52,509 bases of DNA from a virus, in the IMG/VR virus record IMGVR_UViG_3300020131_000001, positions 1 to 52,509 of that record; one strand, given 5' to 3'. Of this stretch, positions 10,558-51,724 are shown one piece after another (the first letter of the stretch is position 1; every line of letters starts with the position of its first letter). The position numbers and the translations under genes were made by a program. The notes under the pieces are model-generated. The model was not told the origin of the DNA and searched no databases. It saw only the letters and a list, made by a program, of their open reading frames with translations.

Positions 10558-11757
10558 TTACATTACCCGTTCGGCCTCTTCGTGTGTCAGCGTTGCGTCA
10601 GACGCCTTAAAAAGCAGGCTCTCAAAGCTGTCCGAGAGGCTTTCTTTCATCTGAGGCAGCACCTTCGTGTAGACCTTCTTTGTAAAGTTCACGTCCGAGT
10701 GTCCCATCTGAGCAGAGACGGCCTTGTCCAGTTCCCCGGCCAGTAGAGACAGCGTGGCGAAGCTGTAGCGCATGGTATAAGGGGTAAACTCCGGCGGCAG
10801 CCCCGCCTTCTTGACGAGCTTGAGAAAGCCGCTCCTGAGCCGTCCCGTGGTGTTCAGGGGCCGTCCGTCCGACGAAGGGAATACAAGGCCGAAATCCTGC
10901 CACCTGTTTCCCATCAACTTCCGGCGCTCGTCCACCTTCTGAAAGTGCCGAAGGAGGTCATAATAGATATGCGCCGGAAATCTAGCGTCCCGCTTGCTGT
11001 TCTCAGTCTTAGGGTCGAGCAGCTTCCACTTGCCTTCAACGAGTAGAGCTACTTTCCTGATGCGGGCTATCCCCCTGCCGTTCTCGAAAGATATATCCTC
11101 TCGTCTGAGTCCTGATAATTCTTCGGGCCGCAGGCCAGTGACAAGCCCGAAGATGTAAATCAAATCTTCAGGGTCTTGAGTAGCGGCCTGTAAAAACTGA
11201 ATAGCTTGAGGCACGTTGAAAGCCTTGCCCTCGCGCGGAGGGTTCAACGATTTCAGGTGTTTGATGCCTGTGGCCGGATTCTCCTTGATGTACTTGAGAG
11301 TGACGGCATCCTTCATGCCCATGTGCCACACGGCCCTTGCCAGTTTCATCGTTGCTGTAGACTTCCCCCTGTCCCACAGCCACGCCGCAAAATCACGGGT
11401 ATGCTTCGGGGTCAAATCCGAGAGCTTAAACGCTCCGAGATACGGCGCTATGTACAGGTCAATCATATCCTGATAGGTGCCGTAGGTTGTCGGCCTCACC
11501 CCTTCCCGTCTTTTCTGCGGCAGCCATTCCTTCTCGAAATAGTCCTTGACGAGCATCTGCGAGGCTTCAAAGAACGTCCCGCCGTCAACTTCCGCTAGCA
11601 GAGCGATGCACCGTTTCTCGGCTTTCAGTGGTGTAGTGTCAAAGAGCGTTTCGTTGTGGTAGTGCTTCTTACCTTGTCCGTCCCGGCCGGTGAAGATTCG
11701 GATGCGGAACTTCCCGCCGCCGAGGTCTTTCACCTGGCCCCTGCGTCTCTTAGGCAT
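10558..11757 (-). CDS. int: Tyrosine site-specific integrase.
   Basis: N-terminal SAM-like core-binding region plus a catalytic domain (TGLRPEEL, MRYSFATL, GHSDVNFTKKVYTKV). Start trimmed to ATG 11757, which has a GGAGGAGAG RBS. Confidence 0.85.
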   Translation of the reverse strand: MPKRRRGQVKDLGGGKFRIRIFTGRDGQGKKHYHNETLFDTTPLKAEKRCIALLAEVDGGTFFEASQMLVKDYFEKEWLPQKRREGVRPTTYGTYQDMIDLYIAPYLGAFKLSDLTPKHTRDFAAWLWDRGKSTATMKLARAVWHMGMKDAVTLKYIKENPATGIKHLKSLNPPREGKAFNVPQAIQFLQAATQDPEDLIYIFGLVTGLRPEELSGLRREDISFENGRGIARIRKVALLVEGKWKLLDPKTENSKRDARFPAHIYYDLLRHFQKVDERRKLMGNRWQDFGLVFPSSDGRPLNTTGRLRSGFLKLVKKAGLPPEFTPYTMRYSFATLSLLAGELDKAVSAQMGHSDVNFTKKVYTKVLPQMKESLSDSFESLLFKASDATLTHEEAERVM

Positions 11758-11797
11758 AGCCTCTCCTCCTTTATTGGATTTAAGGCTGGACAATTTA

Positions 11798-12061
11798 TCA
11801 CGCCGCATTTTCTAATTCACCCTTTTTATAGGCATCTATATCCCTGCGCCGGATTCTTAAAGTTTTGGAGCTGGGGCGATAAGAGGGTAGTTTGCCCTCC
11901 CTACACATCTCGTAGACGCGCCACTTCTTGACGCCTAAGAGTTTAGCCGCTTCATCAGCGCTGACACCTTCGTCCGAGAGGTCAAGCATCTCACGGACTT
12001 TCTGCTCAACCATCGGCTCGACAATTCGTTTTAACTGTTCGTCTGGTATGACTAATTCCAT
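11798..12061 (-). CDS. xis: Excisionase-family helix-turn-helix DNA-binding protein.
   Basis: VSADEAAKLLGVKKWRVYEMCREGKLPSYR...RIRRRDIDAY is typical of MerR-like excisionase HTH proteins. It lies directly upstream of int. Confidence 0.7.
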   Translation of the reverse strand: MELVIPDEQLKRIVEPMVEQKVREMLDLSDEGVSADEAAKLLGVKKWRVYEMCREGKLPSYRPSSKTLRIRRRDIDAYKKGELENAA

Positions 12062-20889: not shown

Positions 20890-21195
20890 CTAGGTATCAT
20901 TACCGTTTTTCTCAGTACCAGTTGGAGGGAGTTTTGTTAGACCAATCTCACGCTCTACCGTATCCTTTACGCCCGCCATAGCATCCAGTTCCACGCTGTC
21001 AATTCTGTAATAAGCTACAAGAATCGCCTCAATTTGTTTATTCACACTTCGACGGCACCGCTCGGCATCCTTAGCTATAACGTCGTGGAGGCGAGGGGGT
21101 ATCTCAAGAAGTTTTTGCTTGACCTGCTTCTTCTTCGAGGATTTCTTCTGCGCCATGTTCCCGTTTATATCATATCGTTTCGATATATCCAACAT
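20890..21195 (-). CDS. Ribbon-helix-helix (Arc/CopG-like) repressor; candidate maintenance (CI-like) repressor.
   Basis: LLEIPPRLHDVIAKDAERCRRSVNKQIEAILVAYY has the RHH pattern. AGGAGG RBS 8 nt upstream. Divergent from the rightward operon. Confidence 0.6.
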   Translation of the reverse strand: MLDISKRYDINGNMAQKKSSKKKQVKQKLLEIPPRLHDVIAKDAERCRRSVNKQIEAILVAYYRIDSVELDAMAGVKDTVEREIGLTKLPPTGTEKNGNDT

Positions 21196-21500: not shown

Positions 21501-22262
21501 ATGCGCGTTGAAACCATAACCATAGAAGACATCCGTGGAATCCCTTTTATACTTGCTGATATGAAAACAGACAATATCAGCCGCAGAAATTTAACCACCT
21601 ACGAAAAGTCAAAGACTATCGTTGAACTGGCCGATGCCGTTGGGGGGCAGCTAGCAAGGGGAGCCGCCGCTCAAGTTGAGCCGTTGGCCGACTCTAGCTC
21701 TGCATACTTCGGAATCCTGAAAGGGTCTAAGACGCGCCGCTTTGCTAAAGCCTACCCCTCTGCCTGGACTGGACATTGGCATTTGGCGGCGATAATTGAA
21801 GCAGAAGTAACATATACAAATCACCCGGAACCTCAAGAGAACGTCGCATTTTGGTTTGATGCTCAGGGCTTTGATTTAGCGGACTTCACTTGGGGCTCGT
21901 CCCCCTCAGAGCCTTTGGAGCATAACCCTTTTTATAAGCTCGAACCTCCGAAGCTTCGTCTGGTACAACCGGAACCGGAATCAAAAACTTCATACGTGTA
22001 CTTCATTCAGGCCGAAACAACCGGACTGATTAAGATTGGCGTTACTAACAAGCCCGCAACTCGCCTTAAGGCCCTCCAGACGGGCTCCCCTATGCTTCTA
22101 CGACCACTAGGGCTAATTGAAGGCGACACAAGATTGGAAGCTGCATTACACGCTCAATTTAAGCATTTAAGGCGTCATGGCGAATGGTTTGAGCCCAGCG
22201 CCGAATTACTAGCATTTATCAAAGAACGGGCTAAAGCGTGGCCCTCTAAGACAAACAAATGA
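21501..22262 (+). CDS. T5orf172 (GIY-YIG-related) domain protein.
   Basis: C-terminal YVYFIQAETTGLIKIGVTNKPATRLKALQTGSP...HGEWF. Confidence 0.6.
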   Translation: MRVETITIEDIRGIPFILADMKTDNISRRNLTTYEKSKTIVELADAVGGQLARGAAAQVEPLADSSSAYFGILKGSKTRRFAKAYPSAWTGHWHLAAIIEAEVTYTNHPEPQENVAFWFDAQGFDLADFTWGSSPSEPLEHNPFYKLEPPKLRLVQPEPESKTSYVYFIQAETTGLIKIGVTNKPATRLKALQTGSPMLLRPLGLIEGDTRLEAALHAQFKHLRRHGEWFEPSAELLAFIKERAKAWPSKTNK

Positions 22263-22393: not shown

Positions 22394-22924
22394 ATGTGGA
22401 CTCACTTCTGGGATATGCATAGTGGCGGCGGAACTAAAGTAATCCGCCTTGATGACGGCTCTTTCATTGACGGCGATAACTACGTCAAAGAGGGCCAGCC
22501 TATAAATCACATCTACATTGAAGCCCCAGAAGATGAAGCCAAAGTAATCTTCTATAACCGCTTTGGTCATAATCCTGAGCGTGTTTCCTGCACATGCTGC
22601 GGTGGTGACTACTCAATAAGCGAAGGCGAAAGCCTTGCACAACTTACCGGCTTCCATCGCCATTGCGCTTGGGAATCTGTAAAGGGCGAAAAGGGTGGCG
22701 GTCATTATGTCGAAAGACAGGATGAAGGCCATCGTAAGTACATCCTACACGGCGATGATGACGCTGTATGGCAAGCGTATCTTACCGAGCGCGGCGATTC
22801 GGTCAAATATCAAACCCTTGAAGAGTACATGAAAAACGACGATGTACTTTTCATCCCTAAGTCTCATATCAAGCCCGAAGAACGTAAAGGCGAAGTGCCG
22901 GAACAAGGTTTTGTCTGGGTCTGA
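22394..22924 (+). CDS. Hypothetical protein.
   Basis: Start trimmed to ATG 22394 (MWTHFWDMHSGGG), which has an AAGGAA RBS. Confidence 0.55.
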   Translation: MWTHFWDMHSGGGTKVIRLDDGSFIDGDNYVKEGQPINHIYIEAPEDEAKVIFYNRFGHNPERVSCTCCGGDYSISEGESLAQLTGFHRHCAWESVKGEKGGGHYVERQDEGHRKYILHGDDDAVWQAYLTERGDSVKYQTLEEYMKNDDVLFIPKSHIKPEERKGEVPEQGFVWV

Positions 22925-23145
22925 GCCGTGTACGTGCGACTAAGGGATAACGACTTGGCCCTAATCGTTTTTCTTTTATTCATCTGACTTCTTTTTTCTG
23001 TTGACCTTTGGCTTCGGCCAGCAACACACGAGTTCTTTCATAATTTTAAGGTTTGGCTTCCCTGTATGCTGCCGCATTTCTAAACGGTGGCTACTAGCTA
23101 GGTACAGGATAAGCCGAAACGGGGCGGTCATTGAGGGCAACATCT

Positions 23146-23211
23146 AGCAACGTACCTCAGATGGATAGAGTCCCTTCGGGGAAGTCGCGGGTTCGAGTCC
23201 CGTCGTTGCCG
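23146..23211 (+). ncRNA. tRNA-like element: acceptor, D-arm and T-arm are present, but the anticodon arm is replaced by a C(UUCG)G-capped 4-bp hairpin.
   Basis: AGCAACG TA CCTC AGATGGATA GAGT / TCCC-TTCG-GGGA / AGTC / GCGGG TTCGAGT CCCGT / CGTTGCC G. No 7-nt anticodon loop can be drawn. Confidence 0.45.
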
Positions 23212-23262
23212 AAGATTGACTGATGATGTTGAGCGACCTGAGCCGCCCCTTTATCAAACATC

Positions 23263-23364
23263 ATGGCAGACATAGTTATTGGAATCATCATTGGCTTATT
23301 GCTTATCACCCTATGCGCTCTCATAGCGTGGGGGATTAAGTCATTGTTTGAAAACGAACTCTAG
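23263..23364 (+). CDS. Possible 33-aa single-pass membrane peptide.
   Basis: My translation: MADIVIGIIIGLLLITLCALIAWGIKSLFENEL. The start codon lies in the 3' arm of an 8-bp stem (23223-23230 pairs with 23257-23264). Confidence 0.3.
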   Translation: MADIVIGIIIGLLLITLCALIAWGIKSLFENEL

Positions 23365-23400
23365 TTTTTGTTTGGCTACACCTTAAAAGGAAACACGACC

Positions 23401-23673
23401 ATGAGAGAAATTTGGAAATATCAACTACCAGATTCAGGTTGCGTCACACTTAACCTGCCTAAGTTTGCCGAGATTCTAACCGTTCAAATGCAGCGCAGAA
23501 TAGCTTGCTTGTGGGCCTTAGTTGACCCGAAAGCCGAAACAGAACAGCGAACCTTTTTAGTCGCTGGCACGGGCCATCCGATTAAAGAAGACGGTAGGCT
23601 GGAATACATCAACACCATTCAAATGTTCGGCGGCGACCTTATATTTCACATCTTTGAAGTGACTAAAGAGTGA
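23401..23673 (+). CDS. Hypothetical protein; paralogue of 16320-16595.
   Basis: IWKYQL..LPKFAEILTVQMQRRIACLWALVD...GTGHPI...GGDLIFHIFE; AAAGGAAA RBS. Confidence 0.65.
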   Translation: MREIWKYQLPDSGCVTLNLPKFAEILTVQMQRRIACLWALVDPKAETEQRTFLVAGTGHPIKEDGRLEYINTIQMFGGDLIFHIFEVTKE

Positions 23674-51079: not shown

Positions 51080-51512
51080 CTTTCTTCAGTGCTTTTAGAA
51101 AGTTCTTTGCAAGGTTCATCTCATTAGGACGGCTAAGAGAAAAGCCGGATGATTCTTCGTAGGTTTCATCATCCTGCCACAGAATCCGCTTTCTCTTTTC
51201 AGTCTGGACATACGCGGTTAGCTGAGAGCGCATGTAGTGAGACCTTCTGCGGCCAAGTGATTCTGTACTGGACTCAACGGTATAGAGAAGGATGAACTCG
51301 GCTTCATCGGGAGAGTCTACTAGGATGAACTGCTTCTTTAGTTCATTGGCAATTATTTTCCGAGAGCTAACGGACTCGGCAGCAATATAGACCTTTTGCT
51401 TTCCCTGTAGTTCGGTGATTTGACCGTATTCAGGAAGTTCTTGAGCAAGAACGGTAGAAGTCAAAAGCGTTATCAGTAGCAAGGAGATTGTTTTAAGTCT
51501 CATTTTATTCAC
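51072..51512 (-). CDS. Secreted (Sec signal peptide) protein on the antisense strand.
   Basis: MNKMRLKTISLLLITLLTSTVLAQE. ATGA overlap with the upstream antisense gene. Its 3' end overlaps the tape measure stop by 8 nt. Confidence 0.6.
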   Translation of the reverse strand: MNKMRLKTISLLLITLLTSTVLAQELPEYGQITELQGKQKVYIAAESVSSRKIIANELKKQFILVDSPDEAEFILLYTVESSTESLGRRRSHYMRSQLTAYVQTEKRKRILWQDDETYEESSGFSLSRPNEMNLAKNFLKALKKAK

Positions 51513-51724
51513 CTAGCAAATAGAGGAGCAAGAAGCAATATGAAAAGGAGGCCAGCTAGAAAGCAGGGTATGAGTATCGCAACTAATACGCCCCACATGA
51601 TTGCAATGGACAGGCTGGCTTTGTCTATCCAGAGCGGCTTGTATTGCCTACCGCAGTGCGGACAGAGGGGCGCAAGTGGGGAGATTGCAACTCCGCAATC
51701 TGAGCAAGCTACTGTGTTAGGCAT
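51509..51724 (-). CDS. Zinc-ribbon plus two-TM membrane protein on the antisense strand.
   Basis: Start trimmed to ATG 51724 (AAAGGGG RBS). CSDCG...CPHCG, then IAIMWGVLVAILIPCFLAGLLFILLLAPLF. Confidence 0.55.
   Translation of the reverse strand: MPNTVACSDCGVAISPLAPLCPHCGRQYKPLWIDKASLSIAIMWGVLVAILIPCFLAGLLFILLLAPLFAR

Follow-up and report, generated by a model that had tools for sequence, protein, structure and literature searches.

Phage genes for transfer RNAs (tRNAs) are usually explained by codon supply or by the replacement of host tRNAs destroyed by defence nucleases. RNAs which resemble a tRNA and do not decode have been found in various organisms: mascRNA, for example, is cut from the human MALAT1 transcript's 3' end by tRNA-processing enzymes. 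This molecule is described as a 58-nucleotide (nt) tRNA-like RNA (10.64898/2026.01.19.700226). The YrlA and Yrn1 RNAs present in bacteria and in some phages are non-decoding tRNA mimics serving as substrates of RNase P, CCA-adding and tRNA-modifying enzymes (Chen et al. 2014, PMC4201824). The position of the anticodon is taken in YrlA by the Ro60-binding stem, the acceptor stem being a closed hairpin, and the presence of a GNCGAAN0-1G motif near the 5' end is a feature of Y RNAs (PMC4201824). The YrlA genes reported in phages adjoin the Ro60 gene. In Bacillus cereus, the pseudo-tRNA tRNAOther is described as a non-translational tRNA-derived RNA with a regulatory effect (PMC3399842). We analyzed here a tRNA-like element located at positions 23146-23211 of the + strand of a viral DNA of 52,509 nt (IMG/VR record IMGVR_UViG_3300020131_000001), which is referred to below in its full length as the window. 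This tRNA-Asp-like cloverleaf is incapable of decoding, since a minute hairpin closed by a UUCG tetraloop is present instead of the anticodon arm.

The element consists of 66 nt, including the discriminator G73, and corresponds to model positions 1-71 of the Rfam tRNA family RF00005. The 5' acceptor strand AGCAACG (23146-23152), which is preceded by a U at position -1, pairs with the 3' acceptor strand CGTTGCC (23204-23210), which is followed by the discriminator G (23211). The acceptor stem therefore comprises six Watson-Crick pairs plus A1.C72, and position 1-72 is also non-standard in the covariance-model alignment. The CCA end is not encoded after the element, the following bases being AAG. 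The D arm CCTC-AGATGGATA-GAGT (23155-23171) contains three pairs and a C10.U25 opposition, and A14, G15, G18, G19, and A21 are present. The variable loop AAGUC (23182-23186) is of the class-I type, with the equivalents of G46, U47, and C48, and the T arm GCGGG-UUCGAGU-CCCGU (23187-23203) shows all five stem pairs, one of which is a G49.U65 wobble. The acceptor stem, the D arm (with G18 G19), and the T arm (with a GTTCRANYC loop) are thus those of a canonical tRNA, and the bases known to form tertiary contacts were all found to be kept (U8, A9, A14, G15, G18, G19, A21, G46, C48, G53, T54, T55, C56, A58, and C61).

The deviation from a canonical tRNA is entirely confined to the anticodon arm, where the 13 core positions of the model are reduced to five. 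The stub CCC-UUCG-GGG (23172-23181), which folds on its own at -4.0 kcal/mol, has neither the 5-base-pair (bp) stem and 7-nt loop of a canonical tRNA nor a U33 or an anticodon. The original prediction of a tRNA-like RNA devoid of anticodon at this place is therefore borne out by the features of the sequence, and two of its details need to be amended. The hairpin, which had been written TCCC-TTCG-GGGA, does exist, but T23171 had been counted twice, once as the last base of the D stem (in C10.U25) and once as the first base of the hairpin; a fourth pair, U23171-A23182, is possible. The shortfall in the arm, which had been put at 5 nt (12 instead of 17 nt), amounts in fact to 8 nt relative to a real tRNA, based both on the model and on the alignment with the tRNA-Asp of Escherichia coli and that of an Erwinia phage.

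Rfam and ARAGORN, suggested as checks by the original prediction, were run, and the element was recognized by the former and, with relaxed thresholds only, by the latter. RF00005 matched exactly positions 23146-23211 of the + strand with a score of 32.3 bits, above the gathering score of 29 (E-value 0.006 in the whole window and 6e-5 in a stretch of 501 nt), and was the only Rfam family matched across the 52.5 kb; none of the families other than tRNA reached even E = 0.1. ARAGORN detected neither a tRNA nor a transfer-messenger RNA (tmRNA) at the element with its default settings, and reported a 'tRNA-???' without any usable anticodon at thresholds of 80% or less.

Judging from sequence similarity, the T arm and the 3' acceptor strand are nearest to those of tRNA-Asp. 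The best match in all 5,426 complete E. coli genomes is tRNA-Asp, with 96% over query positions 35-59 and 93% over positions 39-66, which cover the T arm and the 3' acceptor strand; the T arm (23187-23203) agrees with that of E. coli tRNA-Asp over its length. Among the GenBank phages, the annotated matches covering most of the element are mainly tRNA-Asp and tRNA-Arg genes. The alignment of the element with the tRNA-Asp of E. coli and that of Erwinia phage Kwan places the gap precisely on the loop and the lower stem of the anticodon arm; the xxGUC variable loop is in register, as is the upper end of the stem (CC...GG). A class-II origin was also considered, since the pattern CCCTTCGGGG-N8-GGTTCGANTCC matched only normal phage tRNA-Tyr genes, the variable arm of which, CCC-UUCG-GGG, shows the same 5-nt spacing to the T stem as the stub in the window. 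The derivation of the element from a tRNA of this kind by a single deletion of ~20 nt is possible in principle and was considered less likely, because class-I tRNA-Asp features are shown by the D arm, by the AAGUC variable loop, and by the T arm. The class-I traits of the D arm include a 9-nt loop and a non-standard pair at 10-25 rather than at 13-22. More than one event would presumably be needed to form the stub from a class-I arm, since N26 and the lower stem would have to be lost and a new 4-nt loop acquired.

The explanation that we tentatively prefer, while stopping just short of calling it probable, is that the element is a non-decoding tRNA mimic derived from a tRNA-Asp and released by tRNA-processing enzymes. 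The upper body of the tRNA (the acceptor stem, the T arm, the D arm, and the elbow contacts) would have been kept, and the anticodon arm would have been turned into a stem of 3-4 bp with a UUCG tetraloop. The element would be transcribed along with the rightward early genes; the RNase P of the host would recognize its 5' side, where U(-1) is present, and the 3' side would be dealt with by a tRNA-processing activity and then by the CCA-adding enzyme, which is invoked because CCA is not encoded. The product would be a stable RNA of ~66-69 nt which the ribosome is unable to read. By virtue of its tRNA shape, it might compete for, or act as a decoy of, a factor of the host or of the phage which binds the acceptor/T/D body, and the candidate targets include tRNA-directed defence nucleases or toxins, RNase P or Z, the CCA-adding enzyme, elbow-binding modification enzymes, and toxins directed at the acceptor end. 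The excision would also split the early transcript, separating the upstream genes from those downstream. The perfect C(UUCG)G stub, the retention of all the tertiary-contact bases, the Rfam score above the threshold, and the co-orientation of the element with both flanking genes speak in favour of a mimic.

Elements with a similar architecture were identified in other genomes. The scan was based on a pattern combining a standard D arm (TCAGNNGG..AGAG) with a T loop (GTCNNNGGTTCGANTCC), separated by 8-17 nt instead of the usual ~21, and the class was defined by normal D-arm and T-loop motifs, at least six of the seven acceptor pairs, and a distance of 8-17 nt from the D stem to G46-U47-C48. The 8-17-nt pattern was found in at least 120 viral contigs and in 104 contigs among the genomes of 185,579 species, many of which are metagenome-assembled genomes (MAGs) from gut or environmental samples, and the 12-14-nt subset of the pattern in 83 metagenome contigs (the loci are numbered L016-L135 in the case of the viral contigs, L136-L218 in that of the metagenomes, and L219 onward in that of the genomes). 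The element in the window belongs to the class, with a gap of 13 nt and six of the seven acceptor pairs. The proportions given below for the class apply among the matches listed. The acceptor strands do not form part of the pattern, and at least six of the seven acceptor pairs are nevertheless present in 232 of the 308 elements outside the window. Together with the location of part of the class near normal tRNA genes (see below), this pairing argues for real units and not for noise. ARAGORN calls only 18 of these 232 elements, and Rfam classified the members of the class that were checked as plain tRNA, with scores of 44-56 bits.

Two architectures can be distinguished in this class. In elements with 8-13 nt, the arm is simply absent (CUUU + AGGUC, for example), whereas those with 14-17 nt carry a mini-hairpin consisting of a 3-5-bp stem and a loop of 3-5 nt, such as GCAA, ACAA, or UUU. 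Between 64 and 86% of the 14-17-nt stubs form mini-hairpins of this kind, as compared with 29-41% after shuffling. The element in the window is the compact extreme of the mini-hairpin architecture. A non-standard 10-25 pair, like that of the element in the window, occurs in 20 of the 73 strongly truncated elements, as against 3 of the 88 mini-hairpin elements and none of the 28 normal tRNAs of the same loci.

One family without any anticodon arm (alignment A1; loci L025, L036, L067, L076, L094, L102, L107, L110, L247, L258, L276, L281, and L305) shows covariation. Its members, which have the linker GAAAUUGUGUC and the conserved core TAACTCAGNTGGNNAGAGGAAATTGTGTC, come from viral contigs and from MAGs of Lachnospiraceae and other Clostridia (Faecalimonas and Eubacteriales among the readable titles), and frequently adjoin a tRNA-Gln gene. 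In the 13 distinct sequences, the 195 pair cells are 100% paired, and changes on both sides were observed in all seven acceptor pairs and in two T-stem pairs; none of the 500 shuffles attained the observed number of paired cells, that of both-side-changed cells, or the covariation score. The linker replacing the anticodon arm is also conserved in sequence. Selection for the upper body of a tRNA, without the anticodon arm, is clearly acting on the RNA of this family. The recurrence of the truncated class in phage contigs, including one fully covarying family, lends indirect support to the interpretation of the element in the window as a mimic, and suggests a tRNA-shaped RNA with a function outside translation rather than mere debris. 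It is conceivable, and in our view rather unlikely, that anticodon-less tRNA look-alikes constitute a widespread and hitherto undescribed class of phage small RNAs, acting as decoys for host factors which bind tRNAs independently of the anticodon, and that the element in the window is one independently derived, tRNA-Asp-based member of this class, expressed with the early genes of a temperate phage.

In about 30% of the class, a normal tRNA gene is found at a distance of no more than 1 kb, and the two are co-stranded in 67 of these 68 cases. This distribution bears on an explanation that we regard as improbable, namely that the element is purely a cis-acting processing signal, the tRNA shape of which recruits RNase P or RNase Z to cut the early RNA before the DUF7352 block, the RNA released having no role. 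Cleavage of this kind has precedents, since RNase P matures the C4 RNA of phages P1 and P7 and the CI RNA of P4 out of operon transcripts, and tRNA-like punctuation is known in mitochondria and at MALAT1. The element in the window lies between co-oriented early genes, has a U at position -1, and shows an intact acceptor/T minihelix and an intact elbow, all of which would be suitable for such a signal. However, next to co-stranded normal tRNAs an extra cut would be redundant, and the conservation of the linker in the covarying family suggests that the RNA itself matters.

The position of the truncated elements with respect to repressor genes was also considered. At locus L092 (131-3072), an element belonging to another family lies ~2 kb into an early operon diverging from a CI-like repressor gene, and is co-stranded with the early genes; the element in the window is placed in the same way relative to the Arc-like repressor gene (20890-21195, minus strand). 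A CI-like repressor gene (Peptidase_S24 plus CI HTH) occurs within 3 kb in 17 loci corresponding to eight element clusters among the matches listed. This proximity may be meaningful, or may simply reflect the place where temperate phages keep their accessory genes. In another viral contig (L024), a ROOL RNA (Rfam RF03087, 391 bits; 1462-2022) was detected, flanked on one side by a truncated tRNA-like element (775-836) and on the other by normal tRNA genes.

Elements of this type are also carried by cultured phages. A tRNA-Asp-like element was found in ~35 records of SPN3US-like jumbo phages infecting Salmonella, E. coli, and Proteus, the region being 95-100% identical between them; the stub, CCUC-UUU/UUC-GAGG, has a 4-bp stem and a 3-nt loop. 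The element is annotated 'tRNA-OTHER' in SPN3US itself (NC_027402.1, 2933-3002) and 'tRNA-Asp' in Proteus phage 7, and is not annotated as RNA in most of the other records of this group, where there is no annotation or only a hypothetical protein on the opposite strand; SPFM4 was also among the loci considered. A tRNA-Ile(CAU)-like gene, which is not annotated in SPN3US, immediately follows the element. In Microbacterium phage BAjuniper (41329-41460), a truncated stretch without any acceptor pairing occurs in a tRNA array where a duplicated 5' tRNA half is fused to tRNA-Asn and an HNH gene adjoins. This stretch is a true tRNA remnant, and living and dead versions therefore both exist in phages.

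Several observations weigh against the idea that the element in the window is a functional mimic. No orthologue was found in any of the collections searched, and this singleton therefore comes without evidence of conservation or covariation. Of the relatives of the protein encoded upstream (176 amino acids (aa); 22394-22924, + strand), the four closest for which a contig location was obtained (64-74% identity) are not accompanied by a tRNA-like element. No neighbouring gene common to the window and the other truncated elements was found. The thermodynamic z-scores of the element are unremarkable, and the scan for a sigma-70 promoter or an intrinsic terminator near it yielded nothing convincing. 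Lastly, the score of 32 bits is low in comparison with the 44-56 bits of the other members of the class, owing to A1.C72 and C10.U25, which possibly reflect decay.

The searches on which the first of these points is based covered several collections. Exact scans of viral and genome collections with a 33-mer and a 21-mer gave no matches: the 21-mer GGTTCGAGTCCCGTCGTTGCC, which corresponds to the T arm and the 3' acceptor strand, was matched exactly neither in 2.9 million viral contigs nor in the genomes of 185,579 bacterial and archaeal species, each represented by one genome. No match to the architecture-specific pattern of the element was found in metagenome contigs, and the best match among the 308 listed truncated elements, with 80% identity, reflects generic tRNA similarity. 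No tRNA-like element was present at the corresponding site in the relatives identified from the upstream gene (L001 and L007-L010) or from the downstream DUF7352 gene (L002-L005), none of the relatives examined had an intact tRNA at the equivalent site, and no related viral locus was obtained using the DnaB gene as the query. At locus L008, where the flanking gene is 70% identical, the homology extends ~70 nt beyond the stop codon, and the region 1826-2180, which corresponds to 22925-23262 in the window, contains an open reading frame (ORF) for an HNH endonuclease where the tRNA-like segment would be. The slot looks like a hotspot for mobile endonucleases, and the copy in the window is a singleton in a variable slot. 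In L001 (5238-5538, minus strand), two to three tRNA genes, including a tRNA-Thr and one with an irregular T loop, were observed on the opposite strand, 1.1 kb downstream of the relative of the flanking gene (46% identity).

These findings give some weight to the view that the element is a decaying phage tRNA gene, that is, a functionless tRNA-Asp-like pseudogene which has lost its anticodon arm by internal rearrangement, and we take this to be a serious possibility, although a somewhat doubtful one. It would account for a singleton without any orthologue, as well as for the mismatches at 1-72 and 10-25, the G.U pair in the T stem, and the low Rfam score of 32.3 bits. The variability of the slot, the HNH gene present there in a relative, and the T5orf172 endonuclease-like gene just upstream make an endonuclease-driven rearrangement plausible, and genuine decayed tRNA fragments such as that of BAjuniper do occur in phages. 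On the other hand, the tertiary-contact bases, five of the five T-stem pairs, and six of the seven acceptor pairs have survived, and the sole large lesion has yielded a perfect tetraloop hairpin, which a single contiguous deletion of a class-I arm would not be expected to produce. In addition, this design is found again, under selection, in other phages, and no relative with an intact tRNA at the site was found. In the absence of an orthologue, the covariation test is impossible on the copy in the window, and a mimic and a decayed tRNA are therefore inseparable in the case of this copy.

The element is located in a stretch of 443 nt (22925-23367) which is free of ORFs of at least 50 aa on the coding strand. 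The original prediction had called this region the largest non-coding gap; based on the gene calls of the depositor it is indeed the largest within the surrounding 12 kb, but one comparable ORF-free stretch exists in the window (51080-51539). A second UUCG hairpin, UGGC-UUCG-GCCA, was found as predicted at 23009-23020 on the + strand, 126 nt upstream of the element. In the whole window, only three cUUCGg hairpins with a stem of at least 3 bp occur on the + strand, and two of them (23009-23020 and 23171-23182, each with a 4-bp stem) are located within 175 nt of each other in this gap, which hints at a structured RNA encoded there. A putative 33-codon ORF, which would encode the hydrophobic peptide MADIVIGIIIGLLLITLCALIAWGIKSLFENEL, begins directly after the 3' flank of the element (23263-23364); it has no Shine-Dalgarno sequence and is absent from the gene calls of the depositor.

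The flanks of the element are able to pair. The 5' segment (23121-23144, + strand) consists of GGGGCGG(TCA) and CAACATC and includes the GGCAAC repeat (23136-41), and its partners on the 3' side (23225-23249, + strand) are GATGTTG (23225-31) and (TGA)GCCGCCCC, which ends at 23249. In the minimum free energy fold, GGGGCGGUCA pairs with UGAGCCGCCCC and CAACAUC with GAUGUUG, which lengthens the acceptor stem. The flank duplex has an energy of -30.6 kcal/mol versus -23.2 +/- 3.9 in shuffled sequences (p ~0.04), the p value of the joined flank fold is ~0.22, and the 151-nt fold has a z-score of -1.15. The sequences from which the original prediction had deduced a clamp around the element (GGGGCGG at 23121-27 and CCGCCCC at 23243-49) and an alternative acceptor pairing (the GGCAAC repeat) are therefore present, but neither structure is statistically compelling; the flank clamp is only marginally above chance, and little weight was given to it.

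The interrupted stem of ~17 bp which the flanks can make, extending the acceptor stem, is nevertheless what would be expected of a bacterial Y-RNA-like RNA with the topology of the Deinococcus Yrn1, that is, a tRNA-like head on a flank stem binding a host Ro60 protein (Rsr). The GNCGAAN0-1G motif also has an inexact near-match at 23113-20 (GCCGAAAC), and an exact GCCGAAG is present at 23208-14, at the 3' acceptor end and not near a 5' end. Such an identity is very improbable, however. No TROVE/Ro60 gene was detected in the 30 ORFs of the window that were scanned, which include all those of at least 400 aa except for two tail-region ORFs of 1507 and 903 aa. The permuted topology of YrlA is absent, the arms being in the normal tRNA order, no non-tRNA Rfam match was obtained even at E = 0.1, and the pairing of the flanks is, as mentioned above, marginal.

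The window is a 52.5-kb metagenome contig (ENA ERZ27257317, k141_599596), and its gene layout is that of a temperate tailed phage. The only integrase, which is of the tyrosine type (10558-11808, minus strand), is followed by a leftward block of small genes and by the Arc-like repressor gene. The rightward early block comprises the T5orf172 endonuclease-like gene (21501-22262), located just upstream of the slot, the 176-aa gene, which belongs to no Pfam or PHROG family, the element, the DUF7352 gene (90 aa; 23401-23673, + strand), and genes for a TPR protein, a DNA methylase, an HTH_36 protein, and DnaB; the two genes adjoining the element are on the same strand as the latter. The small terminase, portal, major capsid, and tail genes lie downstream. 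The 176-aa protein carries the Cys-rich motif CTCCGGDYS, and 1,346 homologues of it were found in metagenomes, some of them in records of Acinetobacter and Parcubacteria. No nucleotide matches to the gap or to the surrounding 12 kb were obtained by BLAST in 50,697 GenBank phage records, and the terminase and the integrase are less than 30% identical to those of any cultured phage, so that the host was not identified in this way.

Since the phage encodes a tyrosine integrase, and many integrases of this type target tRNA genes, the element might be the tRNA-derived attP core, as had been envisaged in the original prediction. This proposal was abandoned and is the least credible of all those considered. 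The element lies 11.3 kb from the only integrase gene, inside the rightward early operon, and is not confined to a 3' half: the tRNA body is complete, with both the D arm and the 5' acceptor strand. The 21-mer of the 3' half has no exact match in the genomes of the 185,579 species, although the host might be outside this collection.

A non-decoding tRNA fits neither of the usual explanations for phage tRNA genes. If the stubs are functional, phages would be exploiting the shape of the tRNA and not its decoding ability, and the question would be which protein binds the acceptor/T/D body; the SPN3US-like phages which infect Salmonella are available as cultured models. These elements are overlooked by annotation pipelines or receive the label 'tRNA-OTHER', 'pseudo', or even that of a given isotype, and the inventories of phage tRNAs are therefore slightly wrong. 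If the copy in the window is a pseudogene, it is an ordinary remnant of little importance. No description of phage tRNA-like elements with truncated anticodon arms was found in the full-text literature searched, the coverage of which is incomplete and provides no proof of novelty.

The features of the element can be compared with those of several known systems. Canonical phage tRNAs and the tRNA-like domain of tmRNA share the acceptor stem, the T arm, and the elbow motifs with the element; canonical tRNAs differ in having an anticodon arm with a 5-bp stem and a 7-nt loop, and tmRNA in having no D stem and in carrying a tag reading frame. The SPN3US 'tRNA-OTHER' resembles the element in that it is phage-encoded and tRNA-Asp-like, with intact D and T arms and a reduced anticodon arm, and the two are 77% identical over 53 nt. 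In the SPN3US element, however, the D stem and the stub are separated by two linker bases (AA or AG) instead of the single N26 of a normal tRNA, and this element adjoins another tRNA in a lytic jumbo phage and is known only from software annotation. It is not an orthologue of the element in the window, the similarity being that expected between any pair of tRNA-Asp-like RNAs. In contrast to YrlA, the element in the window has its arms in the normal order, without any Ro60 gene among the 30 ORFs scanned or any exact Ro60 motif in the right place, and is not a member of the YrlA family. The tRNAOther of B. cereus is chromosomal and retains its anticodon arm, and thus offers no structural counterpart to the stub. 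Like the element in the window, mascRNA combines good acceptor, D, and T arms with an undersized, non-decoding anticodon arm, but it is eukaryotic, nuclear-encoded, and unrelated in sequence to the phage element, the processing of which is a prediction. The nearest functional analogues are mascRNA, YrlA/Yrn1, and the tRNAOther of B. cereus.

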